A DNA stretch of 25,450 bases from the NCBI GenBank assembly GCA_043228905.1, contig JBHGNT010000440.1:1-25450 (forward strand). The letters are read 5' to 3'. The DNA comes from Azolla caroliniana. Its lineage: Eukaryota; Plantae; Polypodiophyta. The notes under the pieces were generated by a model, which worked only from the letters and a program-made list of their open reading frames with translations, did no database searches and was not told the origin of the DNA. Positions 6,082 through 25,450 of the stretch are shown in pieces. How positions within the stretch are numbered: position 1 is the stretch's first letter; each line of letters opens with the position of its first letter. Made by a program: the position numbers and the translations under genes.

Positions 6082-6449
6082 TGTCGTGAAGATTTTCGGC
6101 AATAGTGTGAAAATCTCATAAAACGTACGAAATCGAGTATGAATCACATAGTACAATAATTGTGAAGATAACATTTTAAATAGATTTAATATCTAAGTAC
6201 AAAATGATGGAGGTTTCGAATGCACTTTATTACACGAGAAACGGACAAATAAATGTCAAGATATGAGGGTATAAAGTTTGTAAAAGGAAAGGAGAAAATT
6301 GTGAGATATCCCACATAGGCACGACAAATACAGCTCTCATCATATATAAGGTGGAGCAAAAGATATTATCTTTGTGTCTATGTGTGGAGCATAGAGAGTT
6401 CAAGGTAACTTGAACTAAGAGTGGAGGTGGGCTAGCTACTCATAAAGGG

Positions 6450-6625
6450 TTTTGGCTAACCAAAACCGGACCGACGTTTTGGCTAACCAAAACCGGACCG
6501 ACGATGGAGCCGGCAATCCGGCGATGGAGCCGGTGATCCGGCAGCAATCCGGCGACGGCATCCGGCGAGACACCGGTAACCGACGGCATCCGGCGGCGGC
6601 ACCGGTAACCGACGGCATCCGGCGA
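6450..6625. repeat. GC-rich tandem and degenerate repeats in the G1 LTR
   Basis: TTTTGGCTAACCAAAACCGGACCGACG x2 and ACCGGTAACCGACGGCATCCGGCG x2; 12 CCGG sites counted. Confidence 0.9.
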
Positions 6626-6756: not shown

Positions 6757-7179
6757 TAAATTCTCATACATGAGAGCTAAAAATGAGTGACATGGTTATC
6801 ATGCACCACATGTAATACATATGCGCCGAATGGCAAACATGCAATTTATGCATGTCTTGTACCCTCACATGCATCATATGCATGAGAGCATCTATAAAAG
6901 AGGGAAGGGGGAGGAGAAAAGACACGGTTTTTTTTATGAAAATTAAGAGGAAGAAATTCGTTATCAAATTGATCGTGTAACTTGTTTCTTAAATCTAAAG
7001 TTAAAACTTCAATCAATCTCTCTCAATCGTGTGATCTCAACTTCTCTCTTTCCCAATCTATCTTAAGTACTTTCTCGCTAAAGCTTACGCCAAAGCTTGT
7101 ACCGACTTTGAATCCTTCCGGTCTAGAACCCCGACGGTTCCGCCTCACGATCCGCGCGTTGTGACGGATCTTCACGAGA

Positions 7180-8954
7180 ACGTGCAACTTGAGAAGTGCA
7201 CTGATTGCTTGGCCGGAAAGAAAAACCGAACCTCCTTCCGGTCAAGAGCACTGATGAGACGGAATGCACCACAGGAGTTGATGCATACCGATGTGTGTCA
7301 AGTGGACACGAAGTCATATGCCGGATCGCAGTACTTCATGACGTTCATAGATTACCACAACCAGAAGCTGTGGGTCTCACCATTGAAGACGAAGGACTAG
7401 GTACTATCCGTCTTCAAGGAGCTCCACACGAGAGTGGAAAGAGAAACCGGCCGGAAGCTGAAGGCGGTTCAAGTAGATAACGGAGGAGAATATCGGGGGT
7501 AGTTTGAGGAGTACTGCCGGTCGAAGGGAATCCGGCTCGAGTTTACTGTGTCGAAGATGCCGGAACTAAACGGGTTGGCTGAAAGGATGAACCAAACCAT
7601 AATGGAGAGTCTCCGGAGCATGTTAGCACATGCAAAGTTACCCAAGACGTTTTGGGCTGAGGCGCTGACGACGGCGACCTATGTGATAAATAGATCACCC
7701 TCAGCACCCTTGGAAGGAGACTCACCTCAAAAAGTATGGACCGGTAAAGATGTATCTTACCGGTATCTGAAGGTGTTCGGGTGTCTCGCATATGTGCATG
7801 TTGCAAAGGAGAAGAGAGCAAAGCTAGATCCAAAGTTCAGGCCATGCATATTCCTTGGATACGGCGATAATGAGTTCGGTTACCGCGTGTGGGATCTGGT
7901 CGACAAGAAGGTGTTCAGTCAGGACATAGTCTTCATGGAAGACTTGACCATTGCCGACTGGGAGTCGGAGAAGAAGGTGATGAACTCCAGGTCATTTAAT
8001 GAAAATCGGCTTGAGGACACAAGGATTTACCCGGTTGAAAACCACATGCTAGCCGGTAACCGGATGACACTCGACGAACCGGCCAGATATGGACAGGAAA
8101 CCGAACCAATCAAAGAAGAAGAAGAAGAAGAAGAAGAAGAAGAAGAAGAAGACATCGGAACCGGAACCAGACAAGATCCTGAATCAGATGATCATGAGGA
8201 ACAAACGGAGGAACTGGCAACCAGAAACCAAGGACGGAGATATCCTCTCCGAGAGAGAAGAGCCCCCCGGAGATTTCCAGATGCAGAGCATGTGTTGCTG
8301 ACCAATGAGGGGGAGCCGGAAAGCTTCGAAGAAGCAAAGAGAGACACCCACAACCGCAAGTGGTTGAGTGCCATGCAGGATGAAATGGATTCCCTTCATG
8401 AGAACCACACATATGAACTGACGGAGTTGCCGAAAGGGAAGAGAGCACTACAGAACAAGTGGGTGCACAAGTTGAAACCAGGAGATGCTGGAAATCCATC
8501 CAGGTATAAGGCCTAAATCGTGGTGAAGGGCTTCCAGCAGAAGAAAGGAGGGGATTTCGATGAGATGTTTGCCCTGGTAGTAAAGATGACATCCATCTGA
8601 ACGGTATTGGGCATAGCGACAAGCATGGACCTCGAGGTAGAGCAACTGGACGTCAAGATGACATTCCTACATGGCGACCTCGAAGAAGAGATCTACATGC
8701 ATCAACTGGAAGGATTTGAGAAGAAAGGGAAGGAGCACCTGTTGTGCCGGCTGAAGAAGAGACTATACAGACTAAAGCAAGCTCCCCGGTAATGGTACCG
8801 GAAGTTCGACTCCTTCATGAACAACCAAGGGTACCACAAGACGCAGACCAATCATTGCGTGTTTGTGAAGAAATTTGATGGAGGAGATTTCCTGATACTC
8901 CTCCTATATGTGGATGATATGTTGATCATCGGACGAGACCAGATTCTGAAGAAG
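7180..8954 (+). pseudogene. pol: Copia C pol, part 1 (end of zinc finger, integrase core, RT N-terminal half)
   Basis: CTDCLAGK, ELMHTDVC, PELNGLAERMN, EPESFEEA, QLDVKMTFLHGDL, LLYVDDM; several TAG/TAA stops. Confidence 0.92.
8115..8150 (+). repeat. (GAA)12 microsatellite encoding poly-Glu in the IN-RT linker
   Basis: Directly visible; in frame with ORF 7548-8516. Confidence 0.95.
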
Positions 8955-9411
8955 TGTTGAGAGACAAGCTCAACATCAGCCAGATCGGCTGAAGAAGCCG
9001 AGGACCGGATCGGTTGGGACCGATCGGTTAGGCCGAATGCGTAAACCGGTACGCAGATCGGTGCGTAGGTAGGGCCGGATCGGTGTGTAATCCGGGAGGC
9101 CATTAGGAAAGATATTTCATGAGGAATATATTTGGGAGTTAGTGTAGGAGCTCTTAATGAGCATTGAAGTACTGTCAGTACTTCTGTCAGTCCTTCTAGG
9201 ACTTGTATAAAAGTGTTCATTGAACACACATATGTATAGTGTGGTGAATAGAGATTGAATACTGTTGTTAAATATAGTTCTTGTGTTTTCTCTCTCTCTC
9301 ACTGTCTCTGTCTCTCCCGCGTATACTGCGTAAGCTCAAGCTCTCCATTAAACCTGAGTTTCCTTCCTTCTGTTCGCTCTTCATACTTGCTTCCGCACGC
9401 TACTTTCTACA
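8955..9411 (+). repeat. 5' LTR of Copia D (457 bp)
   Basis: TGTTGAGAG...TTTCTACA; matches 13702-14060 plus 21187-21279. Confidence 0.97.
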
Positions 9412-9423
9412 TGGTATCAGAGC
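9412..9423 (+). promoter_or_regulatory. Primer-binding site, tRNA-iMet (Copia D)
   Basis: TGGTATCAGAGC directly abutting the LTR end. Confidence 0.95.
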
Positions 9424-9495
9424 GCGAGGGTTGAGAACCTCCCTGCAGCCGACAAAACTTGACGAAGAAGAACAAGAAGAACGATGGATAGAGGC

Positions 9496-12400
9496 ATGGC
9501 GAGCTCGCTTCCAACAGAGAAGCTCGACAGAACCAACTACGCGTCTTGGTCCTACAAGATGCACCAGTACCTGCTCGGGCACGGCTACTAGAGTTATGTC
9601 GAAGGAGCTAATGACGCGGCACCCGAATCGACACACAGAGACTTCCCGTCGTGGGAGCAATCGGCGAGCAGGGTATTATACTGCTTCGCGTTGTGTGTGG
9701 GCGAACAACTATTGAGCTATGTTCGGGATGCAAAGACGCCGAAGGGTGCGTGGGAAAATCTGAAGAGAGATTTTCACTGCGAGCACCACAGCCAGGAAGC
9801 TTCAGCACCGACAGGAGTTGAGCAACCTACGACAACGCGACTTGTTGGTGGCGAACTATACCTCGAAGATCAAGGATATCTGTGACTCCCTCACCTCCAT
9901 AGAGGTGAACATCGAGGAGAGCGAGATGGTCCAGATCTATCTCGGAGGTTTGGCGTCGAAGTTCGGAGCGTTTCGAACGGCTGTGTGTACCTGGGAGAAT
10001 ACACCGTCCTTTTTCGACTTACAGTCAATGCTCCTGGTAGAGGAGAACCACGCAGGTGCATCTACAAGCATGCACACTGACAACAGAATGTTGTACACGG
10101 AGGGAGATAGGCCCCGTGGACGTGGAGGACGAGGCGAGTCGGCGCGCAATGGAGGCGGCCGACGAGATCAAGGAAGAAGGCACCGAAGTGATGCCGACAG
10201 CAACTCCGGACCCTCCGGAAACAGGGGGAGTCGAAGCGATGAGAACCGGCAAGGGAAGGCCATCGCATAGTGCTGGTACTGTGGCAAGAAGGGCCACAGG
10301 GAAAGTGAATGCTGGAAGAAGCGCGCCGATTCGGAGAGAACCGGTTCCGGAAACGGCTCCGGACATACCGACAAGGGAAATCGGCAGCGATCACACTACG
10401 CCGAAGACTCCGGGAGAGCCGGAGAAGGGTCAGCCTTCGCGACGAGACACGAAGCAAACTCAATGAAACAGACCACCCCGAGATCGGACGAGGTGTGGTA
10501 CGTAGACTCCGGCGCGTCAAACCACATCACGAGCCATAAGGAGTGGTTCTCGTACCTTGAAAAACCGATACAACCTGGAGTAGTCGCAACTGGAGACGAC
10601 ACTCCGCATCCGATCACGAATGTCGGAGAAGTTCCCCTTAGCCATGTCGGGCAGAAAGGGAAACTCATGAACGTGCTGCACGTTCTGACAATCACGAAGA
10701 ACTTGGTCTCGGTCGGACAGATCGTCGACCAAGGGATGGAGGTTCGGTTTACACACCTCGGGTGCTTCATTGAGGAAGAAGGCCGTGTGATTGCGCAAGG
10801 GCGCAGAGACCGGAGGATGTTCATCCTCGACTCCACTCACGGTGGCACCGCAATGTTCGCGAAGGGAAGAAAAACAGAGTCGAACATCGACTTGTGGCAC
10901 AAGCGGATAGGCCACGTCAACTACTAGCGGCTTCAAGATCTGCAATCGAAACAGGTAGTGTTCGGATTGCCCAAATTTAGTGGCCAAAAGGCACAAATTT
11001 GTGAAGCCTGCCAGCTCGGGAAGCAACACCGACTTCCTTTAAGCTCGACCTTATACACTCCGATGTGTGGGGGCCGGCACAAAACGTTAGTCTTGGCGGG
11101 AGCCGATATTTCGTCTCCTTCATCGATGACCACACGCGGCACACGTAGATCTACCTCATTGAGAGGAAGAGCGAAGTCTTCGACTGTTTCTGGGACCTCA
11201 AAGGGTTCGTGGAAACGGAAACGGGACGAAAGTTCAAGTGCCTACGGTCCGATGGCGGGAAAGAGTACTTTTCCGGTCAATTCAACGGTTATCTACAACA
11301 AATGGGAATTCGGCACGAATTCAGTTGTAGATACACGCCGGAGCAGAACGGCGTGGCCGAGAGGAAGAATCGGTCAGTTGTGGAAGCGGCACGGGCAATG
11401 CTGGAGGAGAAGAGCTTGCCCAAGTTCTACTGGGCCGAGGCGGTAAGGACCGCGGTATACATCCAGAATCGGATCGGAGACAAAGTGTCGGCGCACGAGC
11501 TATATTTCGGAACGAAGCCGAACTTACGACACTTGAGGGTGTTCGGTTGCATTGCGTACGTGCATGTACCGAAGAGAAAAGGAGGAAGCTGGACGCAAAG
11601 GCCGAGAAATGCATCTTGGTCGGTTACTCGGACGAGCAGAAGGGTTATAAGTGCTATAACCCTCACACCAAACAAGCGCGTGTTAGCCGCGACGTTGTGG
11701 TTGACGAGTCCGCGTCCTGGTACTAGCCCCCGACTCCGAACCCCGACTCCAATCCGAGTTCTGACGATGAGGTCAGCGAGGCCGAGATGTCTTCGGATGA
11801 GCCCAAAATCGAGACCCACGAAGAGAGTCCGATTTCACTCTATTTAAGTGGACCAATTGGACGATTGAGTCGGTACGACCAGTTCGATGAAGAGCTGGCG
11901 AGTAGTGGAGACTCGGCCGTGCATTCCCCACGCAGGAAGCCGAGGAGACGGCTTACGCGCGAAGAGAAAGGGAAGAAGAAGGTGTCGGATTCCGGCACGG
12001 ATAGGAACGAGTCAGACCGACGCGAGTCAGACTCCGAGGGAACCGGTGACAGGTCTTTAAAGGTGAAAACTGCGTCGACCGAGAAGGCCTCGACATCGGC
12101 TAATGTGAGATTACGCCGGTCTACCCGCCAGAAGAATGTTGTTTTGCGGTTCGGATACAACGAGTACATGGCGCATCATTATGCGTACATGACCCGTGTA
12201 GCGGAAGTGCGTGAGCCGGAGAGCTACGCAGAAGCGGCTAAAGACGCGAATTGGCGTGCCGCGATGGAGGAAGAGATGCACGCATTGGCGGAGAATGAGA
12301 CCTGGGACCTGGTTGACGCACCAAGGGTGGTAAAACTGATCGGGTGTAGGTGGGTGTACAAGGTCAAGTACAACACCGATGGCTCGGTCAACCGGTACAA

Positions 12401-13515
12401 GGCTCGGCTAGTGGCAAAGGGCTACGCGCAGAAACATGGCATTGACTACGATGAGACGTTTGCGCCGGTCGCGAAAATGATGACCGTCCGTGTTTTGCTC
12501 GCAGTAGCTGCGGTGAAGGGGTGGCACTTACATCAGATGGATGTAAAGAATGCGTTCCTGCAAGGTGACCTTGAGGAACAGGTGTACATGGTACAACCCC
12601 CCGGATTTCACTCCGGAACGAACTCCTCGGCAGTATGCCGACTGAAGAAGTCCCTTTACGGACTGAAGCAAGCCCCGCGTGCCTGGAACGCGAAGATCAC
12701 GCAACAACTACGTCGGATGGGCTTCGTCATGTCAAAATCGGACTCTTCCCTATTCATCCGGAAAGGTCGACTCAGACCGGTTAGTATTTTACTATATGTT
12801 GATGACTTGGTCATCACCGGCGTCGACAGTTGCACTGTCGAGCACCGAAGCTGAGTACCGAGGAGCGGCTGTTGCGACATGCGAAGCCATATGGTTGAAG
12901 CGGCTACTTAGGGACCTGCAAGAGGAGGTGTCAGATCCGACGACGATCTACTGTGACAACCTCACCAGCATCCAACTCGCGAAAAACCCCGTTTTCCACG
13001 CACGGACCAAGCACATTGAGGTGCACTACCATTTCGTCCGTGAGCGTGTCCTTTCCGGTGAAATCAAACTTCAGTACATGCCGACGGATCGGCAGACTGC
13101 CGACATCTTCACCAAGCCTCTTGGTCTGGACAAGTTGCGGCAATTCTCAGGTGCGCTTGGATTGCGTCACCTCGACGTGCCAAACTTGAGGGGGAGAACA
13201 GTCCCGAATGACCAAGACTGCGACACCGAGTCGGTTGACTCGGTTGTCGAGTTCGACTTCGGATCGACTGAAGAAACCGAGGGCGGACCAGCGGAAAAGT
13301 CCGGAAGCGGACAAAAGGGGAACCGCCGAAGGAGAGAGCCGAAGCCAACCACACATGGAGAAGATGACGCCATCGAGGGCGAGAAGACCAAAGACAAGTT
13401 GGAGACAACCAAGTCGGACGAGAGCGAAAACCGATCGGAGGTAGCCGAGTCGGTTCGGATGTTTGATTCAGATACGTTGAATCAACCGAGGCCCAAACGG
13501 AAGAAAAGGCAGTAG
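9496..13515 (+). pseudogene. gag-pol: Copia D gag-pol polyprotein, disrupted by stops, frameshifts and deletions near 11040 and 12827
   Basis: MASSLPTEKLDRTNYASWSYKM start; CWYCGKKGHRESEC knuckle; WYVDSGAS protease; LWHKRIGH/CEAC; LRSDGGKEY, PEQNGVAERKN; RT YKARLVAKGY...YVDD; RNase H ALSSTEAEY...HIEVHYHFVRE...ADIFTK. Confidence 0.93.
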
Positions 13516-13689
13516 GAGAAGCGTCAACACCACAACAGCAGAAGAGCTGATAAGGGCCACATGAACAAACAAGCTGACCGGAAGGGTTGAAGCGCGCAGA
13601 GTTGAACAGGTCGTGGAGCGCGAGCGAGGCGTGAAGCCAGGAGGAACCGAAGCTGTGAGCCCGAAGATCCCGAAGAGCCTCAAGTTGAG

Positions 13690-13701
13690 CTTGAGGGGGA
13701 G
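13690..13701 (+). promoter_or_regulatory. Polypurine tract of Copia D
   Basis: CTTGAGGGGGAG immediately before the 3' LTR start TGTTGAG. Confidence 0.9.
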
Positions 13702-14060
13702 TGTTGAGAGACAAGCTCAACATCGGCCGGATCGGCTGAAGAAGCCGAGGACCGGATCGGTTGGGACCAATCGGTTAGGCCGAATGCGTAAACCGGTACG
13801 CAGACCGGTGCGTAGGTAGGGCCAGATCGGTGTGTAAACCGTGAGGCCATTAGGAAAGATATTCCGTGAGGAATATATTTGGGAGTTAGTGTAGGAGCTC
13901 TTAATGAGCATTGAAGTACTGTCAGTCCTTCTAGGACTTGTATAAAAGTGGTGTTCATTGAACACACATATGTATAGTGTGGTGAATAGAGATTGAGTAC
14001 TGCTGTTGAATATAGTTCTTGTGTTCTCTCTCTCTCTCACTGTCTCTGTCTCTCTCGCGT
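13702..14060 (+). repeat. 3' LTR of Copia D, left part (interrupted by G2)
   Basis: Matches 8955 to about 9322. Confidence 0.97.
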
Positions 14061-14789
14061 TGTCGTGCCTTTCGGCTCCGGATCGTTGCGTGAGTCGGGT
14101 AGGAACCGCCGAGGTTTTGGACTAGGAGGAAGAAAAATACAAATAAGGCTAGTAAAGAATAGGTATAAAGAGTTATAAGATAAGAATCTCATGAATCCCA
14201 CGAGTTTAGTATATTTAGTCAATATTTAGGTAGTAAGAGAGAATTAGTTTAGCAAATTTGTGAATCCCACAAATATTTTAGATTGATTGATCATTATAGA
14301 AAAATAATCAACAAAAACTACAATGTGCTCCCCATCCTTATATAGTGATCGGAGAGACTAAGCATAGCTACATGCTTTTTTTTTTCTAATATGTTCATGC
14401 ACACTAAATGTGCATGTGATGCTTTTCTAATCCTTGCTTTTATTTGCTAAATATAGTGCTCATGCACGCTAGATGTGCATGAGTCACTTTTTAGTTGCTT
14501 GCGTTTTACTATAAAATATTCACGCACTCTAAAAATACATGATTTACCTTTTAATAAAGGTAGGCGCAAATAAAGCACTTATAGTTATTAAATCTATTTG
14601 TAGAACACTAAAGATAAGGTAGCATAATGGTAAAGTTGAGGTTTGGCTACATGGAGGTACAAGGTTCGAATCTTGCCCTATGCACGTGATAAATGTTTTG
14701 ATATATTATTTATTTATTTATTGATATGTATCTAAAATCGGATATATTATTTTATGGTTTTCACGTAGTGTGTGGAATACACTACGACA
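14061..14789 (-). repeat. 3' LTR of G2 (729 bp)
   Basis: TGTCGT...ACGACA termini; near-identical to 20461-21186; TATA CTATATAAGG at 14336-14345 (minus). Confidence 0.97.
14613..14684 (+). other. tRNA-like A-box/B-box cassette in the G2 3' LTR, antisense to the element
   Basis: TAGCATAATGGTA (14620) and GGTTCGAATC (14663) with tRNA-like spacing and partial acceptor-stem and T-stem pairing. Confidence 0.65.
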
Positions 14790-17700
14790 CTCGCCCCCTC
14801 TGAACCCGCACATCCTCCGGTATGTGCCGAAGTTCTCGATTCCTCATATCCGTCTTCACCCAAAGCTTCCTCCGATTCTCCCCTTATATCGACTATGAGT
14901 TGTAATTCACTTTCTTTGCTTCCCACATCACCGTGGTCTTCGTCCGATTGCTCCTCGTTGTTGGCCTTGGCTTGGATCACATAGGGTTTGTCGTCGGTCC
15001 GCTTCTTGAAAATCTTCACCCGCTTCCCGGCTATAGGCACTCGTAGTATTGTTCCATCCAACTCGGACAGTCGGTACGTTCCATTGTCGAAGACTTTCCG
15101 AACCTCGTATGGCCTGAACCACCTTTTCGCGAATTTCCGCATCGTTGTATGTTGATGGTCCAAACTACTGTCATAGACGATCACCCAATCCCCTTCTTCA
15201 ATCCTCCTTGGTCGTAGTCGGTGCTTTGTGTCGAACCAGCTTTTGTTTCGGAATCGTGCTTCTTGTTGTCGGCGTATTGCTTATGCTATGTCTGCCGGTC
15301 TTCCCTCTAGTTGTCGTATCCGGACCGCTAGTAGTTCTTCCCGGCTCATCTCTTCCTTCCATGGTAGCACTGTCCATGTTGTGATCGTAGTTTCCGTCGG
15401 CATTACCGATGCTTGTCCGGTCATGAGTTCTGCCGGCATGTAACCGGTTACGGAGCTATGCGTCGTCCGATCCGCCCATAGTGCATACGGAAGCATCTGC
15501 GGCCAGTCCTTCACCTTTCCATCGTATGCCATCGCAAGTGCTTTCACAATCGGACTATGTCCTCGTTCGATTTTCCTGTTGGCCTCCGGATTGTATGCCG
15601 TTGTCAGCGATAACCGAACTCCGTGTTTGGCGAAGAATCCCCTAGCTTTGTCCGAGTCGAGTTCTCCCCGGTCCGCAATCACTTGTCCTACGCACCCGTA
15701 CCTGCAAAATACTTCCTCCAAAAGAAATTGGCATACCGCGGAACACGTTTTCCTCTGAAGCGCTCGACCTTCTATTTGATTCGTGAGATCTTCTCGAGCT
15801 AATACCAAGTATTTCTTTTGTCCGATCCCGGTCGGCATGGCCACTATGTCGACCATCCACTTGAAGTTGATTGTCGGTGAGAATGTCGGATGTAACTCAT
15901 CTCGATGTCGAACCCCGGAGTAGACTTGACATTTCTTGCAGCTTTCCGTGAACTCCGCGACATCTTTGTACATTTTCTTCCACCAATATTTTTGCTTGAT
16001 CTTCACAAATGTTGCCCATGTTCCTCGGTGTCCAGCCCAATCGGATTCGTGAAACTCGGACATTATCCGGTTTCGTTGCTCTTTTGTCCCGACTACTCGA
16101 AGTGGTATACCATCCGGTCTTTTCGGCGCCCTCCATATTAATCTGTTTTCCAAGAAGAACTTTTGGACTTGCCTCTTCTTCCTTCGGATCTCGGCTCTTC
16201 TTCCTTTATCGTTTGTTGAATCCTCGGCCTCTTGTAACATCTTTCCGATCATCAAGCTTTCTTCCTCGTATTCTTCTTCCCGGAATTCTCGGATTACGTT
16301 CACTCGGCATATGTGCTCCGACGCGAAGTAGTCTTCGGAAACTTCTTCATTATCCGATTCGGTTATGTCGTCTCCGAACCGAGCCCTTGATAACATATCC
16401 GCTACCGCGTTGTCCTTCCCCGAGATGTGTCGAACTTCCGGATTAAGCGACTTGACATATGCAACCCACCTTAGCATAGCTACATCCGATATCGTACAAC
16501 ACCGCATCATCCCGAGTATCGGAAGACAATCCGTCTCGATCACCACTTCGGCTCCGATCAAATAATCCCGATCCGATTTTATCGCCGACACGACTCCCCA
16601 CAGTTCTCTTTTGACTTGTGCATATCCACGTTGCCTTTCGTTGAGAACCTTTGCTCCGAATCGGATTGGATACCGCGAACCATCCGAGTCGGCTTGATTG
16701 ATGACCCACCCGATACCAGTTGGACTTGTATCAACCGTTACTATGATTGGTCGGTCGTAGCTTGGCTTCTTAAGTGCTTCCGCCCTCCGAAGTGTCTTCT
16801 TCAATTTCTTCAGGGCTTTGGTGTGTTCCGGTTTCCATTTGAATTTCTTACCTTTCCGCAACAAGTGGTAGAGCGGGTCCGCTATATGTGCATAATGCGG
16901 AATCCATATGTGATAGAATGCACATGCACCGAGAAACCTTCGGACCTCGGATGTTGACTCGCATATTTCTTCCATAGCTTGAATCGCATCGATCTTTGTT
17001 GGTGACGGTCTTCGGCCGTAGGGCCCACATAGATGTCCGACCACCAATATTTCTTCTTGGCCGAATGCCGATTTCTCCCCGGAAAGTGTTAGGTGCACAT
17101 CTTCTAGCTTTCGCAACACTTTCTCACAATCATGAATATGGTCGACCACAAACTTTCGGCATCCCCGATCATCCATAGTCTCATCTTTTTCTTCTACCGC
17201 ACATCCTTTCATCGAAATGTCATCGAGGAACGGCATCATTATCTCCGGAATGCAGTCTCGAAGCACCTTGTTCATCGCGTTCATCATATGAGCAACCGAG
17301 TTTGTCGCTCCTTGTGGTAGTGTGCACATTCGGACTAATCCTATCGGTGTTCGCATGGTTGTGATGTCTCGGCTCTCCACGACTAGTTGGAATTGGTCAT
17401 ACCCCGAGTATAGGTCTCCGATGGAGTATATCGCACGACCGGCAAAAGCTTCCGCAAATTCGTCCACTATCGGACCGACTCCCGAGTTCCGGATCGTGAC
17501 CTTATTCACTGGTTGTAAGTCTTGGATAAATCGGAGTGACCCATTCTTCTTCGGAACCGTAAACCATCGATTTGAGTACGGATCAGTTGATGGCTCTAGA
17601 ATCCCCATCGCCACCTTCTCCTTGAGCAAGTCAACGACTTTCGGAATATGCGCTCATGGCACCGGAATCGGCTTCAGGTTCCACAATACATGGTCAATCG

Positions 17701-18382
17701 TGAAGATCACCATCGGCTCCACTATTCTCGGATCGACGCACCCTATCTCCCTTGATGTAAATGCAAACGCTTTGCCGTGTTGCTCCAACATCTCGCGAAA
17801 CCGTTCTTCTTCTTTTTGTAATAGGAACCCACCTCCACCGATCCGAAGTTTCTTCCAGGTCTCATCCGTGAAGGCATGTCCGATATCCACGGACTTCCGA
17901 AGTGTCGGATCTCCCGAGACTTCTTTCCTCTTTTGTTCGCTATCGGCGGGTAGTGGTTCTGCGGCCGGTTTCACCTTCTTCTCCACGGTCTTGTATTTCG
18001 TACTTACCATTGCTTCTTCTTTGCGGAGCGTATCCGGCTCCATTTTCACAATGATCTCGTACATCTCGACCGATTCCACCGGGACTACCCGGTTCCCTTG
18101 GCTTTTATCTTCCGCAAGCTCTTCAAGTCGTTGTAGCGTGCTCCCATAGAACACTTCTTCGACTATCCCCACGATTTCTTCATCTTCTTTTATTATCGAT
18201 GCCGACCGCAACTTATCCTCCACTTGTCTGTATCCTTTCTTCAATCCTCCGGTTACGGTCGTGTACGTAGATGCCCCATCCGGACCGATTCGTACATGTT
18301 TTACTCCGAGAGTTTTCTTCCTGTGTGGGGTATCAGGGCTTCTCGGACTATCACTTCCCCACTCTGCAACAGTCCGCTTTAA
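14747..18382 (-). pseudogene. pol: G2 ORF2, pol (RT, RNase H, integrase), a single frame with two in-frame stops (17654 and 15281)
   Basis: ORFs 17654-18244, 15281-17629 and 14747-15184 share one frame, which is open up to the slippery site. Motifs: FLDD, VTVDTSPTGIGW, H...H/CKKC, VD..D..E core. Confidence 0.93.
14790..14802 (-). promoter_or_regulatory. Polypurine tract of G2
   Basis: CAGAGGGGGCGAG on the minus strand, immediately before the LTR start TGTCGTAG. Confidence 0.85.
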
Positions 18383-18388
18383 AAATCC
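18325..18388 (-). promoter_or_regulatory. Predicted -1 ribosomal frameshift signal (G_GAU_UUU plus H-type pseudoknot), G2
   Basis: Slippery site 18388-18382; stem 1 18376-18366/18354-18344; stem 2 18362-18357/18330-18325. Confidence 0.82.
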
Positions 18389-20421
18389 ATTCTCACTTGG
18401 GACAAGAGTTCCTTCTTGTTCCTTTCGTGATTTGCTGGCACAGTTAGGAATTGGACGGATTTCCCACCGTTTTGGCTCCGAATTCGCGCAAAAGCCGCAC
18501 CGCTATTGAGCACCTTCGTCTCCATCTGTGATGCCGTTATAAAGGGTTGGCCGAGGATGACGGAATGTGAAACCTCATCTTGCACGAAGAAATTTTGGTC
18601 GATTTCGACATCCCAGATCTTCACCGTCACATCAGGACAAGCCGCAAATAGATCTTCCGTTGCTTTGGTGGCCGCCCGAATCTTCCATCCATGGTTGGTG
18701 TTAATAGGCCACTTCCCCTTCCGGTAGAACTCCTTGGACATCAAGTTGATCTCCGATCCGTGATCAATCAATGCTAGCACGGGTTCTTTGATGTTGCCGA
18801 TTCGGACCGGAGTCTCCGTAGTCGCCCGTGCCCAATGTGGCTTTGTATAGTGGGAGTTCGGAATTTCGTCCTCCACTTCGGTGTCGTTCATTAAAACGGT
18901 GTTCGCATTCACCCTTGGAGCATTTTCCTCCGTACTTTGTCTTTTTCGCTTCACGAGATCCACGAGAAGATCGTGGAACTCCTTCTTTGTTATTCCGAGT
19001 AGCTCCCGAAGCGAGAAATCTACCTGGCTATCCAAGATCCTTTCTTCGAACACTCTTTTCAAGTCAGTTTGTTGTTCTATGTCCGAGGCGTGCTTGAATG
19101 CCGGAGTTGCCTTTTCTTTTCCCTTACCTCCGGAGTCCCAGCTTTCCGGTATCTTCGATGGCCCGTCCGCATCCTCCGTGCGTCGTCGTTTCTCGTCCAC
19201 ATACACCTTATGCAATTGACACAGGGCGTATACGCTATTCTTGTCGACAGGGCACTCCCATCCCGTAGCTTCCCGGATGCCTTCCGCGGTGCTTCGGATC
19301 TCGTTGGAGTCGGTTTTCTCTGTGTTTTCTAGAACTTCTGGCCAAAAAGATGTCTTTGCTCTCGATGACTCCCTGACACATATTCCCGCGGTTGTCGCAT
19401 AGTTGCTTCTTCCCGCCAATTCCTCCTCGAGCACCTTCTTCATGCCGCCTTTCCGGAAGTTCTGTCGGAGTGGCTTCTGAGAGTCCATCGAATGAATCCG
19501 GTTTCCCTCGTAGTAGATGAGATCCCGCCGTAGCGCCTCCTTATGCTCGTCGCAATCCCTCCGATCGTGTTCGGCGCTATCGCACCATATGCATCGTCGG
19601 TCCGTATACTTGGAGCTTGTGGGGCGGTCATCCGACTTCTTCACCATCGCGATCTTTAGATTCTCCATCTCCTTCAATAGTTGCTCCACCGTAGATGCAT
19701 CAATCCCCTTCTCGGTTGTAGTCTCCCGAGCCCGAGGTTGATGGTCTTCCAATCCGGTTCTAGGTTTCGGAATCGGTTCCAAAGCCCTCTTTTCCTCGTT
19801 GGCAAGCCATTGCCCCCTCTTCGTGTATCGCGCGACGATATCCCGCACACTTTCCCATGTTTCGGTGAGGCCACTCTCCGTGGTCGTGTCCTCCAAGAGC
19901 ACTCCGAGATCTTTCCGGTCCCGGACATCCACGGCTCGCAAGAACATGATCACCTTGTCCGGTACGAGGATAGCTTGATCTCTCGCGGACAACCTCCCGA
20001 ACCGGCTTTCGAATGCCGAAAACACATCAACGACCTTCAATCCCTTGTCCGGCGTCTCCACCCAATCTTCGAATCCCCTTCGTGTCGCCTTGGAGGAATC
20101 CTCGATGGCGAACGTCCTCTTTAGCTCTACTTCAAACGCCTCCCATGTCGGATTTTGCTGTCGTAGCCCATGGATGCTTGCTTGAAGCCCGTAAGTCGCC
20201 ACCCGGTTGAAGGACGTCACTTGCAGTCCTTCCGATATTCCGCACCGTAGCATCTCCGCCTTGTAGTCCCGAAGATACCGCGACACGTCTTTCCCGTCGA
20301 ATTGTCCGTTTCGTTGCACGAGCCGCTCCACTGATGCCGCTATCTCCGACATCGCGCGTTGTTCTTGTAGCATGCGCTCGAACATCATCATCATGTTGCT
20401 AGCCTCCGGTTGATTTTCCAT
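18379..20421 (-). CDS. gag: G2 ORF1, Gag-protease, intact 680 aa
   Basis: FDGKDVSRYL Gag start, CIWCDSAEHDRRDC knuckle, LALIDHGSEINL...VILGQPF protease; the ATG is 17 nt after the PBS. Confidence 0.93.
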   Translation of the reverse strand: MENQPEASNMMMMFERMLQEQRAMSEIAASVERLVQRNGQFDGKDVSRYLRDYKAEMLRCGISEGLQVTSFNRVATYGLQASIHGLRQQNPTWEAFEVELKRTFAIEDSSKATRRGFEDWVETPDKGLKVVDVFSAFESRFGRLSARDQAILVPDKVIMFLRAVDVRDRKDLGVLLEDTTTESGLTETWESVRDIVARYTKRGQWLANEEKRALEPIPKPRTGLEDHQPRARETTTEKGIDASTVEQLLKEMENLKIAMVKKSDDRPTSSKYTDRRCIWCDSAEHDRRDCDEHKEALRRDLIYYEGNRIHSMDSQKPLRQNFRKGGMKKVLEEELAGRSNYATTAGICVRESSRAKTSFWPEVLENTEKTDSNEIRSTAEGIREATGWECPVDKNSVYALCQLHKVYVDEKRRRTEDADGPSKIPESWDSGGKGKEKATPAFKHASDIEQQTDLKRVFEERILDSQVDFSLRELLGITKKEFHDLLVDLVKRKRQSTEENAPRVNANTVLMNDTEVEDEIPNSHYTKPHWARATTETPVRIGNIKEPVLALIDHGSEINLMSKEFYRKGKWPINTNHGWKIRAATKATEDLFAACPDVTVKIWDVEIDQNFFVQDEVSHSVILGQPFITASQMETKVLNSGAAFARIRSQNGGKSVQFLTVPANHERNKKELLSQVRMDF

Positions 20422-20438
20422 CTCCTTGCCACCCGGTC

Positions 20439-20456
20439 TTCACGTCGGGTTCACCA
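20439..20456 (-). promoter_or_regulatory. Primer-binding site, tRNA-Trp (G2)
   Basis: TGGTGAACCCGACGTGAA is complementary to the 3' 18 nt of plant cytosolic tRNA-Trp as I recall it (...TTCACGTCGGGTTCACCA). It lies 4 nt from the LTR end. Confidence 0.88.
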
Positions 20457-20460
20457 ACTG

Positions 20461-21186
20461 TGTCATGCCTTTCGGCTCCGGATCGTTGCGTGAGTCAGGT
20501 GGGAACCGCCGAGGTTTTGGACTAGGAGGAAGAAAAATACAAATAAGGCTAGTAAAGAATAGGTATAAAGAGTTATAAGATAAGAATCTCGTGAATCCCA
20601 CGAGTTTAGTATATTTAGTCAATATTTAGGTAGTAAGAGAAAATTATTTTAGCAAATTCATGAATCCCACGAATATTTTAGATTGATTGATCATTATAGA
20701 AAAATAATCAACAAAAACTACAATGTGCTCCCCATCCTTATATAGTGATGGGAGAGACTAAGCATAGCTACATGCTTTTTTTTTTTCTAATATGTTCACG
20801 CACATTAAATGTGCATGTGATGCTTTTCTAATCCTGGCTTTTATTTGCTAAATATAGTGCTCATGCACGCTAGATGTGCATGAGTCACTTTTTAGTTGCT
20901 TGCGTTTTTCTATAAAATATTCACGCACTCTAAAAATACATGATTTACCTTTTAATAAAGGTAGGCGCAAATAAAGCACTTATAGTTATTAAATCTATTT
21001 GTAGAACACTAAAGATAAGGTAGCATAATGGTAAAGTTGAGGTTTGGCTACATGGAGGTACAAGGTTTGAATCCTACCCTATGCACCTGATAAATGTTTT
21101 GATATATTATTTATTTATTGATATGTATCTAAAATCGGATATATTATTTTATGGTTTTCACGTAGTGTGTGGAATACACTACGACA
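20461..21186 (-). repeat. 5' LTR of G2 (726 bp)
   Basis: Matches 14061-14789 (about 18 substitutions and 2 indels by hand count). Confidence 0.97.
21014..21085 (+). other. tRNA-like A-box/B-box cassette in the G2 5' LTR
   Basis: TAGCATAATGGTA...CAAGGTTTGAATCCT, the second copy of the cassette. Confidence 0.6.
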
Positions 21187-21279
21187 GCGTATACTGCGTA
21201 AGCTCAAGCTCTCCATTAAACCTGAGTTTCCTTCCTTCTATTCGGTCTTCATACTTGCTTCCGCACGCTACTTTCTACA
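21187..21279 (+). repeat. 3' LTR of Copia D, right part
   Basis: Matches about 9319-9411, ends TTTCTACA and is followed by TSD AGAAG. Confidence 0.97.
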
Positions 21280-21284
21280 AGAAG

Positions 21285-22202
21285 GCTCTGAACCAGACCT
21301 TCTCAATGAAAGACTTGGGGCTGGCAAGACAGATATTGGGAATGCACATCATCTGGGACCGGTCGAAGAAGCTGTTGTGGTTGTCACAGGAGAAGTATGT
21401 GACAAAGGTGCCTCAACGGTTCAACATGTCGGAGGCGAAACCGGTCGAATCGACACTTCCGGCAAACTGCAAGCTATCCGGAAAAGAAAGCCCGAGGACA
21501 AAGGCGGAGAAGACGGATATGATGAAGATACCATATGCCTCTGTCGTTGGGAGCTTGATGTACCCGATGGTATGTACCCGACCGGATATTGGATATGCAG
21601 TCGGAGTGGTGAGCTGGTTCATGAGCAATTCCGGAAGAGAGCATTGGAACGCGGTCAAGTGGATACTTCGGTATCTGAAAGACACGTTGAGTATGTGCCT
21701 CCGGTTTGGCTCTGGAAAACCCCAACTCAATGGTTTCACGGATTCGGATATGTTGGTTGATGCAAATACTAACCGGTCGACATCCAGATATGTCATGACT
21801 TATGGAGGGGGAGTTGTTTCGTCGCAATTGAGGCTGCAGAAGACGGTTGCATTGTCAACCATAGAGGCAGAGGACATGGCAGTTGTAGAAGCCGGCAAGG
21901 ATATAATCTAGATGAAGGACTTCATCGGAGAGATAGGGATCCAACAGGAGGAATACCAGCTCTACTGCGATAGTCAAAGCACCATCCACCTTGCAAAGAA
22001 CGCGACCTACCATTCCCGGACGAAACATATCCAACGGAGGTACCACTAGATCCTGGAGAAAGTAGAAGATCAAGAGTTCATGCTGACGAAGATCCACATG
22101 GAAGAGAATGGGTCGGATATGCTTACCAAGATGTTGACAACCGATAAGCTAGACGTGTGCGGAAAGCGGATCGGGTTGACGAGACATCCCATGCCGAAGT
22201 GA
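21285..22202 (+). pseudogene. pol: Copia C pol, part 2 (RT C-terminal half, RNase H)
   Basis: FSMKDLG, PYASVVGSLMY...TRPDI, TVALSTIEAE, LYCDSQS, RTKHI, DMLTK; contains in-frame TAG stops. Confidence 0.92.
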
Positions 22203-22212: not shown

Positions 22213-22723
22213 TGTTGGGAAATCGGTCTCTCCGGATTGGACCCAGTGATGAATGAAGAGGACTCGGTGAGAACCGGAAGAGAGACATATTTGTAAATAT
22301 GTCTTGAGCAAGCCTATTGAGGCTATATTTGTAAATAGCCCTAAGTTCGTATAAGTATAAATAAGACTTAGGACAATCACTTTATGTGCATGTTGTTATT
22401 ATTGTTGTCAGATATTGTTGTACAGAGCGAGAATGACTTAGAGAGAGTGTGAGATACAGAGAAATACTCTGTTGCAACCGTCGGTTGGTGAAGAAACAGA
22501 GCTCAAGGTTGTTGCCTCCAAGTCTCCGATTGTACCCTCTTTTCTTCATAGTGATAGTTGGAGTTTGTGGGCTCCCGTGGTTTTTCCCATTCAAGGTTTT
22601 CCACGTAAACATCCTGTGTACTCTCTTTTGTGTGTACTTCTATTCCCATTCCAGTGTTGCACTCTTATCGAAGTAATTCAAGACTCGGTCGTGGCCGAGC
22701 AGTATTCCGCGCTATTCCTTACA
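22213..22723 (+). repeat. 3' LTR of Copia C (about 511 bp)
   Basis: Follows the PPT; TATAAATA at 22356; homologous to the Copia A LTR. The right end (CCTTACA) is inferred from that homology. Confidence 0.82.
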
Positions 22724-23417
22724 AGTACTATGTGTTGGTATGGTTTGTGGATTACTAGGGAGTTAGGCACTATTAGAGGGTTTAATATCGCATGGGTAGG
22801 GCCGCGGAAACAAAGGTGAGAGTGAGAGCACATCAAGAAGAGAATCTAGGAGAGAATATCGAGGAGTCATTAAACCTTGATGTAACAGTTACTCCTTGAG
22901 TTATAAAAGGGGAGGCCTCATATTGTTTGAGGGATCGTTTTTTTTCTTGAGAAGCAGAGGACGCTATCGAACAGGAAGAAGTAGCTCACTCACTCGTTCT
23001 CTTCTGAACCTCTACGTCCAAACCCTGGGAGGAACCCTCGGCTCGTGTCAGACGCCCGCGCACTCCTGACCAAAGGCCCCATTTTTCTGTGTGTTTGCTA
23101 TAGAGCTCGAAGCTCTATTCCCAGCTCTAACCGGTTGTATTCCCTATGCTTCGCGCGCGCGCGTCCTAACTACTATTGACAATCTATTCCATTGCTTTAC
23201 GTTGTTCTTTTTCTCTTGTGTCGTTCTTGCGTTGCTATTCTCTCGTACTGCATTAGGTCCGAAACCTACGATCACCTCCTTCCTACTCCTCTTTGTCTGA
23301 TTCACGGTGTTTGTGTGTACACGACTCGAGGGCCTCTTCCTCCTTTCTCGATTCCTTGATTCAAGACCCCCTGTGGTCCTACCCCATTTCTACCCATCCA
23401 CGCGGAATTCCGCGACA
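22724..23417 (+). repeat. Right part of a relic Gypsy-type 5' LTR (element Z), interrupted by Copia C
   Basis: TATA-like TTATAAAAGGGG at about 22901; pyrimidine-rich U5-like tract; ends CGCGACA like the G1/G2 LTRs; followed by a PBS. Confidence 0.6.
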
Positions 23418-23421
23418 TATT

Positions 23422-23439
23422 TGATGAACCCGACGTGAA
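23422..23439 (+). promoter_or_regulatory. Degenerate tRNA-Trp primer-binding site (element Z)
   Basis: TGATGAACCCGACGTGAA, 17/18 identical to the G2 PBS, with the same 4-nt gap after ...GACA. Confidence 0.8.
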
Positions 23440-23716: not shown

Positions 23717-24212
23717 TGTTTAGACTTTAGGTCTAAGTGCACTTCGGGGAGACACGTTATTAGAGATCTAGGTACTAAAGTAAGCTTAAGATAAGGATAA
23801 AGTAATGATAGATAGAAAGGAGAAAGAGAAAGAAGGGTGCCGATCCACCCGACCACCCTCGAGCGAAGGGATCGAGACGGACTCGAGCCTCGATCGGTGT
23901 CCCATACCACCGCCGTGGCGTCGAGTTGTACCTGGTGTTGGCGCGCTCGCTACAAGAGTTGACCCACCACAAGAGCAGAGTCTCGATGTAGTCAAAAGAT
24001 GATGAAATGAGGGTAGCTAGGCCTCTTATTTATAGCGATACCCAAGTCCCCCAGGCAAGTTCACACTTGGCCTAATGGGTTGTCTCAATCCCAAGGATTA
24101 AAAGTAATCCTCCCCTTCTTTACATTCTCATTTGACCCTCACACTTATCCACGTGTATAGAATACTATGGTAAATTCTCACCACGGGATATTATATGGTC
24201 ATGCCCGTAACA
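23717..24212 (-). repeat. Putative 3' LTR of the chromovirus
   Basis: Begins with TG right after the PPT; TATA CTATAAATAAG at about 24025-24035 (minus). The end at ...TCTAAACA is a best guess because no partner LTR is in the window. Confidence 0.6.
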
Positions 24213-25450
24213 TACTCCGCCTCTTTAAAACATTGCACTCTTGCAATGGAAAGTTAGGGAAGTTAGTTCTGGGAGTATTTTCACGTTCCCATGTGGCATC
24301 TTTTATTGATTTATCCATCCATTTTATTTTAAATTCTCGGATTTCTTTAGTACGTAATTTTTTTGTTTTAACATCGAGAATTCTTTCTGGTACATGTGGT
24401 TTAGAAGACAATTCTTCAGAAGTAACCAAAGTTTCAGTTGTAACTGTATTGTCGCCAGAACCTAAAAGTTCTTTTAGACGACTCACATGAAAGACTGGAT
24501 GAATTCCGACACCATCGGGAAGAGCGAGACGATAGGCTGATGACCCAATGCGTTTGAGGACTATAAAAGGTCCACAAAACCGTGGGGCTAACTTAGTGCA
24601 CTTACTTGTAGACAATGTCTTAGAATTGTGAGGTACACGTAAAAATACCTTCTATCCAGGGCTGAATACACGAGGTTGCCTATGATGGTCGGCATAAAAA
24701 CACGCTCTATCTTGAGCTGTTTTTATATTATCTCGTGCAATATGCAACATATCTTGCATATCCCGAAGAAAGTTTTGCGTGCTTCGTAACTCATGATGAT
24801 GTATATTAACATTAATCGGGGCTCGTGGCTGAAAACCATATATCTACATAAAAGGACTATACCCCGTCGACGTATGCTTGGAGCTGTTATAAGCAAACTC
24901 CAAAATTGGGAGATAACGTTCCCATTTTGTTGGTTTTGCACCAACGTATGCTCGAAGCATGTCCTCAATAATTTGATTTACTCGTTCTGTCTGTCCATCG
25001 GATTGAGGATGATCCGTGGAGCTCATGCTCAACGTAGTTTCTAACTTCTTAAATACTTGCGTCTAGAAGTCACTAGTAAACTTTGGATTTCGATCACTCA
25101 CGATATCCATCGGTAACCCATAAAAACGAAACAATTCGTCAACGAATTGGTAAGCCAATTCAGGAGCTGTTATGATGGTTTTAGTAGCAATAAATCTGGC
25201 CATTTTAGTTAGTCGATCAACGACAACCCAGATGGCATCATGAACTTTTTGGGTGGGAGGAAGGCTAACAATAAAATCCATGGATATACTTTCCCACTTA
25301 TTATTGGGAATGTCCAAGGGATGTAAAAGTCCAGCGGCTTTAAGTCGCTCGGCTTTGTTAACTTGACACTGGTGACATTTAGTCACATAGCTATGTATGT
25401 CAGGACGCATCTTAGGCCAATAAAATTGAGTGGAGATGAGAATGAGTGTA
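24199..25450 (-). pseudogene. pol: Chromovirus pol C-terminus (integrase, GPF motif, chromodomain), disrupted
   Basis: CHQCQVNK, WESISMDFI, VVVDRLTK, IVSDR, HPQSDGQTERVNQ, KLAPRFCGPF, HPVFHVSRLK, PERILD...IKW...DATWE. Confidence 0.92.

Follow-up and report, generated by a model that had tools for sequence, protein, structure and literature searches.

The window analysed here, i.e., the whole 25,450-nt stretch of Azolla caroliniana contig JBHGNT010000440.1, contains a Ty3/gypsy retrotransposon of 7126 bp, designated G2, at positions 14061–21186, and a decayed element of the same kind, designated G1. All features of G2 are given here for the minus strand. The 5' LTR (20461–21186) matches the 3' LTR (14061–14789) at 707 of 725 aligned bases, and the primer-binding site (20440–20456) lies 4 nt from the 5' LTR. 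G2 sits within a copia LTR, flanked by the 4-bp target-site duplication GCGT (14057–14060 and 21187–21190); an uninterrupted copy of this copia LTR near 9319 has a single GCGT. ORF1 (18379–20421) is intact and encodes gag (DUF4100) with a C-terminal aspartic-protease-like domain. Pfam matches to the protease are weak (5 and 4 of 51 ORF1 homologues), the source annotation of ORF1 relatives reads 'Peptidase A2 domain', and a PDB search with the ORF1 profile gave no significant match. The pol gene (14747–18382), in the -1 frame relative to ORF1, encodes a linker of about 127 codons, reverse transcriptase (RT), RNase H and integrase. In Pfam, G2 pol matched only RT, RT-RNaseH and integrase models, with no chromodomain or aRH match and a 177-aa tail lacking any match; the ORF map showed no extra ORF, the coding region occupying the G2 interior. 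The initial annotation placed pol in the -1 frame and read it as open from the junction onward. The frame holds; the open reading does not, for stops interrupt pol in both window copies. G2 pol has a stop after 242 codons (17656) and another at 15283, and in G1 there is a pol stop after 27 codons (2602), with two more stops in ORF1. Close relatives are intact, e.g., L003, whose pol has 1201 open codons.

The primer-binding site of G2, which may resemble the complement of tRNA-Trp, starts with TGG, and the exact 17-mer is present at 39 of 82 loci. A search for a tRNA matching it, covering 60 of 120 viral loci, gave chance-level matches only, with one tRNA-Met and no tRNA-Trp. Named relatives of G2 come from Physcomitrium, Riccia and Adiantum. 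In the REXdb account, Phygy is a non-chromovirus Ty3/gypsy lineage, defined from P. patens only, with elements of 7.7–10.0 kb, 4-bp NCGN duplications, a tRNA-Trp primer-binding site and an ORF organisation given as ND (PMC6317226). G2 is like Phygy in its NCGN duplication (GCGT, from one insertion only), in having no chromodomain, aRH or extra ORF, in its conserved TGG-starting primer-binding site, and in having Physcomitrium proteins among its matches, which carry no lineage label. It is unlike Phygy in its length, 7126 bp, which falls short of the range listed from one species. On the features as described for Phygy we file G2 as Phygy-like, and not as a proven member.

The surroundings of G2 are composite. 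The copia element that received it (8953–14060 and 21187–21279) has its 3' LTR split by the G2 insertion and is itself nested in another copia-like element (7035–8516 and 21024–21911). Two LTR-like stretches in inverted orientation, 299–650 and 22269–22621, are 72% alike and showed no link to G1 or G2 in our tests. Short tandem repeats of 25–28 nt flank the G1 coding region (663–776, 6449–6502 and 6571–6624). A sequence nearly matching the G2 primer-binding site recurs at 23414–23439, possibly as a remnant, with no Phygy-like coding sequence seen adjoining it. The minus-strand translation of 24199–25449, inspected by eye, holds pieces of a further gypsy integrase whose tail is chromodomain-like.

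The junction between ORF1 and pol in G2 has the layout of a viral -1 frameshift signal. The slippery heptamer G_GAU_UUU (18382–18388, minus) supplies the final ORF1 codons, Met-Asp-Phe, and abuts the ORF1 stop, UAA (18379–18381, minus). A 5-nt spacer separates it from the 5' arm of stem 1 (18366–18376, minus), which pairs with a 3' arm at 18344–18354 (minus) to give 11 bp, 3 of them G-U. Inside the stem 1 loop is GTGGGG (18357–18362, minus), the 5' arm of stem 2; its complement, CCCCAC (18325–18330, minus), follows stem 1 after a 13-nt linker. The initial annotation had described just this arrangement, and the heptamer, stop, spacer, stem 1 and loop complementarity were all confirmed by position. 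Rfam has no family that matches the G2 cassette. A homologous cassette lies in G1 (2515–2577, plus). The two elements are 69% identical in nucleotide sequence over the 3' end of ORF1, and a covariance model of the junction, with both families in its training set, found only the G1 and G2 sites within the window. G1 had been said to share the G2 geometry with changes that preserve pairing. The layout is indeed shared, and the nine stem 1 pairs common to the two elements show two changes, both one-sided; both G1 stems are shorter than those of G2, stem 1 being 9 bp and stem 2 being 5 bp.

Folding statistics were obtained for the G2 copy. The 32-nt hairpin folds with a z score of -4.05, and the 52-nt cassette with a z score of -1.2 under nested folding, which is unable to score pseudoknots; among 81,763 background positions in these pol genes, 203 have a two-stem geometry comparable to that of the cassette. 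It is conservation across families, and not the single copy, that carries the case. Under nested folding, 18318–18335 (minus) forms a small hairpin, CCUG/CAGG, whose loop contains CCCCAC; by eye, L008 and L009 show a hairpin of this type too.

Related junctions were collected by a metagenome scan, from which the best 80 of 175 relatives were taken (75 of the 80 from one assembly series). Together with two further loci from genome contigs and with G1 and G2 these made 84, of which 83 reached the ORF1 stop. A search of viral contigs found no relatives. Clustering at 88% gave 35 families that are 55–87% identical, and 32 were analysed, without L012, L029 and L071. The loci left out were L002 (contig end), L048, L049, L057 and L081 (junction interrupted or degraded), L029 (truncated), L012 (decayed), and L064, L069 and L071, in which the covariance model finds the cassette and local indels displace the ORF1 frame. 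L001 and L002 lie on contigs filed under cyanobacterial and Streptomyces genome assemblies and are probably eukaryotic contamination of those assemblies; in L001 pol is open, and the cassette is divergent but still paired.

At the 83 junctions pol lies in the -1 frame in 70, in the +1 frame in 3 and in the ORF1 frame in none, 10 being unassigned. An in-frame arrangement of ORF1 and pol, the outcome that would have counted against the initial annotation, is therefore found at 0 of 73 assignable junctions. A slip-type heptamer ends ORF1 at 77 of the 83: G_GAT_TTT in 66, G_GAT_TTC in 5, G_GGT_TTT in 2, G_GTT_TTT in 2, G_GTT_TTC in 1 and a locally shifted copy in 1, the variants G_GAU_UUC, G_GGU_UUU and G_GUU_UUC being slip-type too. 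All 32 families have G as the first base of the heptamer, the third position of codons for 11 amino acids, versus a background of 0.27; its Asp codon is GAT in 27 of 27, versus 0.67. In 19 of 32 families a stop closes the pol frame 3–8 codons upstream, so that the frame change must fall in a short stretch around the heptamer. Since the ORF1 stop adjoins the heptamer in 24 of the 32 families but comes one codon on in 3 and five codons on in 5, it does not belong to the signal as a fixed element. The spacer is 5–6 nt in 31 of 32 families, and 3 nt in L028 through extra pairs. The junctions thus combine the features by which -1 signals are recognised, namely an X_XXY_YYZ-type heptamer (here the G_GA variant), pol in the -1 frame across the site (70 of 73) and a structure within the range of 5–9 nt downstream.

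The same ends are seen in proteins. Of 201 ORF1 homologues found, 120 were listed, and 99 of these end within 45 residues of the protease-end motif. Slip-type ends account for 92 of these 99 listed homologues: DF in 57, DF plus five residues in 27, GF in 2, GF plus five in 2, NF in 2 and VF(D/Y) in 2, with other ends in 7. Moss, liverwort and fern entries are among those with slip-type C-termini at the protein level, and from these shared ends we infer that the slip site would be common to elements of the three groups. P0110, P0114, P0081, P0120 and P0073 have ORF1 C-termini of NF, GF or VFP with a few residues added; such ends predict further slip-site variants, e.g., A_AAU_UUU.

Stem 1 aligns without gaps across the 32 families, with pairing kept in 248 of the 256 cells that make up its eight core pairs. 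Double-sided changes occur at 9 of the 11 pairs, and the covariation score was reached by 0 of 500 shuffles, in which relatedness was not corrected. When the partners were slid against each other, pairing was 40–43% versus 83%. On the protease tree, same-branch compensatory events numbered 9.4 versus 3.0 ± 1.5 under a generous null. Synonymous-codon randomisation that kept the pol peptide lowered stem 1 pairing from 0.97 to 0.59, and 0 of 1000 randomisations reached the observed value. Stem 1 therefore covaries, and does so beyond the demands of the protein. Synonymous change is likewise suppressed: over 11 close pairs, among which two loci appear twice and of which 10 served for the linker, pS rose from 0.061 (cassette) through 0.174 (linker) to 0.292 (ORF1), i.e., it was about five-fold lower in the cassette than in ORF1. 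The initial annotation would have been undermined had the stems been no more conserved than the protein requires, a case that the codon randomisation and the pS values contradict.

Stem 2 was supported by three of four tests. Double changes occur at 5 of its 6 pairs, its score was 16.0 versus 11.8 under synonymous-codon randomisation (0 of 1000 reach it), and a family's own arm beats the arms of other families in 25 of 32 (0 of 20,000 permutations, relatedness not corrected). The tree-based test was negative, at 4.2 events versus a null of 6.1 ± 2.0; any co-change counts under this null, and several rows have the 3' arm misaligned. Several families have a stem 2 of no more than 4–5 bp, and in L063 and L082 the best pairing falls in another register. 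From its pattern of change, stem 2 probably forms. If instead stem 1 acted as a hairpin alone, or through a kissing-loop form, the -1 shift would be real and an H-type stem 2 would not be functional. This is the strongest of the rival readings, yet an improbable one. It gains from the tree-based result, from the 7 of 32 families in which stem 2 is short or generic and pairs no better than with a foreign partner, and from the nested G2 fold, in which CCCCAC lies in the loop of a second small hairpin; in the G2 clade a kissing-loop may take the place of a plain H-type fold. Against it are the doubly changed stem 2 pairs, the score above the synonymous control, and matched arms in distant families: GCGAGA/TCTCGC in L060, ATGAGGGT/ACCCTCAT in L062, GCAGGGA/TCCTTGC in L072, ACAGGG/CCCTGT in L078 and GGGACA/TGTCCC in L028.

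Downstream of the cassette, the linker is 118–153 codons long across families and is under coding constraint, with a pN/pS of 0.34; it is free of stops in the pol frame only, the other frames having 4–25 stops. These properties bear on a second reading, in which splicing would join pol to gag-protease as in Ogre, with the hairpin serving, e.g., packaging. The Ogre intron does lie at the same gag-PR/RT position (PMC6317226), there are 17 long fused relatives, all eukaryotic gene models from Riccia and Physcomitrium, and the DF motif is kept in 0 of the 8 fused models with a readable junction. The fused models join at scattered points, however, with 46–156 residues between the protease end and the pol motif, and such scatter is how a gene predictor behaves across a frame break. 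Further, there is no conserved donor, GGT[AG]A occurring in the last 150 nt in 9 of 32 families and at varying places; a linker that is open in the pol frame only, and constrained, does not qualify as an intron; and the heptamer is left unexplained. Three RNA runs gave 2, 2 and 5 reads, too few to judge expression or splicing. We consider splicing very unlikely. Still less credible is an internal AUG as the start of pol, whether through reinitiation or on a transcript of its own: every open-pol family has some linker AUG, but the first one is scattered from codon 1 to codon 109, the stretch upstream of it is open in this frame and under constraint, and the heptamer again goes unexplained. Equally hard to credit is slippage of RNA polymerase or reverse transcriptase on the run of 4–6 U's at the junction, adding a base in some transcripts, since the G_GAU_UUC families have just three consecutive U's, the conserved upstream GG and fixed structure spacing suit tRNA realignment, and contigs list no indels at the site (at the G2 junction, none in 2991 contigs of one run).

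We conclude that the junction feature is real and is most likely a pseudoknot-stimulated -1 frameshift signal, with a probability of roughly 0.9. A slippery sequence and a conserved predicted pseudoknot between protease and RT make it likely that these elements use virus-style -1 frameshifting. Most ribosomes would stop at or just past the heptamer and release Gag-protease; in active copies a minority, stalled by the predicted H-type pseudoknot 5–6 nt downstream, would slip back one base at G_GAU_UUU, and the product of slippage would be a Gag-protease-RT-RNaseH-integrase fusion. Slippage and its efficiency are putative here, being deduced from sequence comparison. Counting against the model, a P-site mismatch remains after slippage on G_GAU_UUU, and the umbravirus and dianthovirus signals depend on long-range pairing. 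Because the window copies are broken downstream, the mechanism would hold for the family and not for G1 and G2 today. The initial annotation had the clade making Pol by pseudoknot-stimulated -1 frameshifting, a proposal that gains support as a rule; it is not universal, since pol of one clade lies in the +1/-2 frame.

That clade consists of L062 and L065, sister families (support 99/93) with cassettes at L062:2834–2900 and L065:2496–2562. Their ORF1s end CAG GUU UUU, one codon more, and UAG. The +1/-2 pol frame encodes complete RT, RNase H and integrase, with 1152 and 1099 open codons; in the -1 frame a stop follows after at most 0 and 5 codons. Both stems are kept; the conserved core is one base nearer, and the structure lies 5 nt downstream. 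The VFD end is shared by six sequences of one protein cluster and the VFY end by two of another, and no indel is listed at the L062 junction in the contigs of the four runs that cover it, three of these runs having a listed bridging contig. Assembly error was excluded by these repeated proteins and junction-covering contigs. A +1 shift would give perfect re-pairing in L065 (UUU to UUU), which L062 (UUU to UUG) would lack; moreover, the ORF1 stop and the beginning of stem 1 overlap, in contrast to antizyme, where the spacing is 3 nt. Given the L062 mismatch and the stop overlap, -2 is preferred over +1; for the frame relation seen, the odds lean towards a -2 shift. Spacers 1–2 nt below the -1 optimum, pseudoknots included, are stated to favour -2 (PMC3458567). 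L068 has G_GUU_UUC at the usual spacing and pol in the -1 frame. Counting against -2, many -1 families reach a 5-nt spacer via one extra closing pair, a G_GUU_UUU signal with a shortened spacer is reported to have given -2 in rabbit lysate and not in wheat germ (PMC6735917), and a +1 shift could serve L065. We give slightly better than an even chance to the model that these two families switched, AG_GUU_UUU and a pseudoknot one base nearer leading to RT through a -2 shift driven by RNA structure. If so, the clade would be a natural, essential case of the -1/-2 spacer-length rule known from engineered reporters, with L068 as a built-in control for that rule.

In the Phygy-like elements the predicted shift point lies after the protease, and not between gag and protease. 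In the animal gypsy-type systems, PEG10, PNMA3 and Drosophila, the shift is at the end of gag and not after the protease. Rous sarcoma virus has its protease on the Gag side, a pseudoknot, and a heptamer other than G_GAU_UUU. This retrovirus reaches pol by a single -1 shift (PMC8310308), as is likely for the G2 family. PEG10 and PNMA3, genes derived from Ty3/gypsy, resemble the system predicted for the G2 lineage in their gypsy-type gag/pol -1 shift, which is pseudoknot-stimulated in PEG10 and Ma3 (PMC5009743), and Drosophila LTR elements have pol in the -1 frame; all differ in having animal hosts. The initial annotation attributed G_GAU_UUU to umbraviruses, in agreement with its listing as the shift site of pea enation mosaic virus RNA2, with a stop nearby (PMC5009743). 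Umbraviruses and dianthoviruses share with the G2 family this site with its nearby stop and the use of plant ribosomes; they combine a stem-loop with long-range pairing, whereas a compact local pseudoknot is predicted for the G2 family. Ogre and Retand share the break between gag-PR and RT-RH-INT; they differ from G2 in that an intron makes up the break in Ogre and a single in-frame stop does so in Retand, and in that aRH is present in both. For the -2 clade, the nearest likeness is PRRSV nsp2TF, made by a -2 shift on RG_GUU_UUU (PMC6735917), a motif that the AG_GUU_UUU of L062 and L065 fits. In PRRSV, as in L062, a -1-frame stop lies right behind the site (PMC8310308). PRRSV differs in being stimulated by a protein complex 10 nt downstream, versus an RNA structure 5 nt downstream in L062 and L065, two families that moreover depend on the shift for RT. 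The listed cases of -2 shifting are phage Mu, arteriviruses and Trichomonas vaginalis virus 1 (PMC5009743).

The signal had been thought undescribed for this lineage, and a literature search, with few subscription papers in reach, found no description of frameshifting in a Phygy-like lineage either. The REXdb table shows no lineage with gag-PR overlapping RT-RH-INT in another frame (PMC6317226), and according to a 2016 review a 2003 survey found split frames in two types of plant element, each of them +1 (PMC5009743). The mechanism is of a known kind; its host lineage and post-protease position are new, as is the probable -2 clade, as far as our searches reach. The finding fills a gap, given that the REXdb ORF layout for the lineage is ND and that the plant elements with split gag and pol known in 2016 were all +1, and it accounts for gene predictors breaking or splicing these ORFs. 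In sum, we think it somewhat likelier than otherwise that an old lineage of seedless-plant retrotransposons shares one pseudoknot-driven, post-protease frameshift cassette and that one clade of it switched to the rarer -2 shift. With the control point after the protease, protease would match Gag in abundance. A single frameshift cassette that plant ribosomes read is here available in dozens of naturally occurring, covarying versions, and the frame of L062 and L065 makes the determinants of -1 versus -2 shifting testable with natural sequences.
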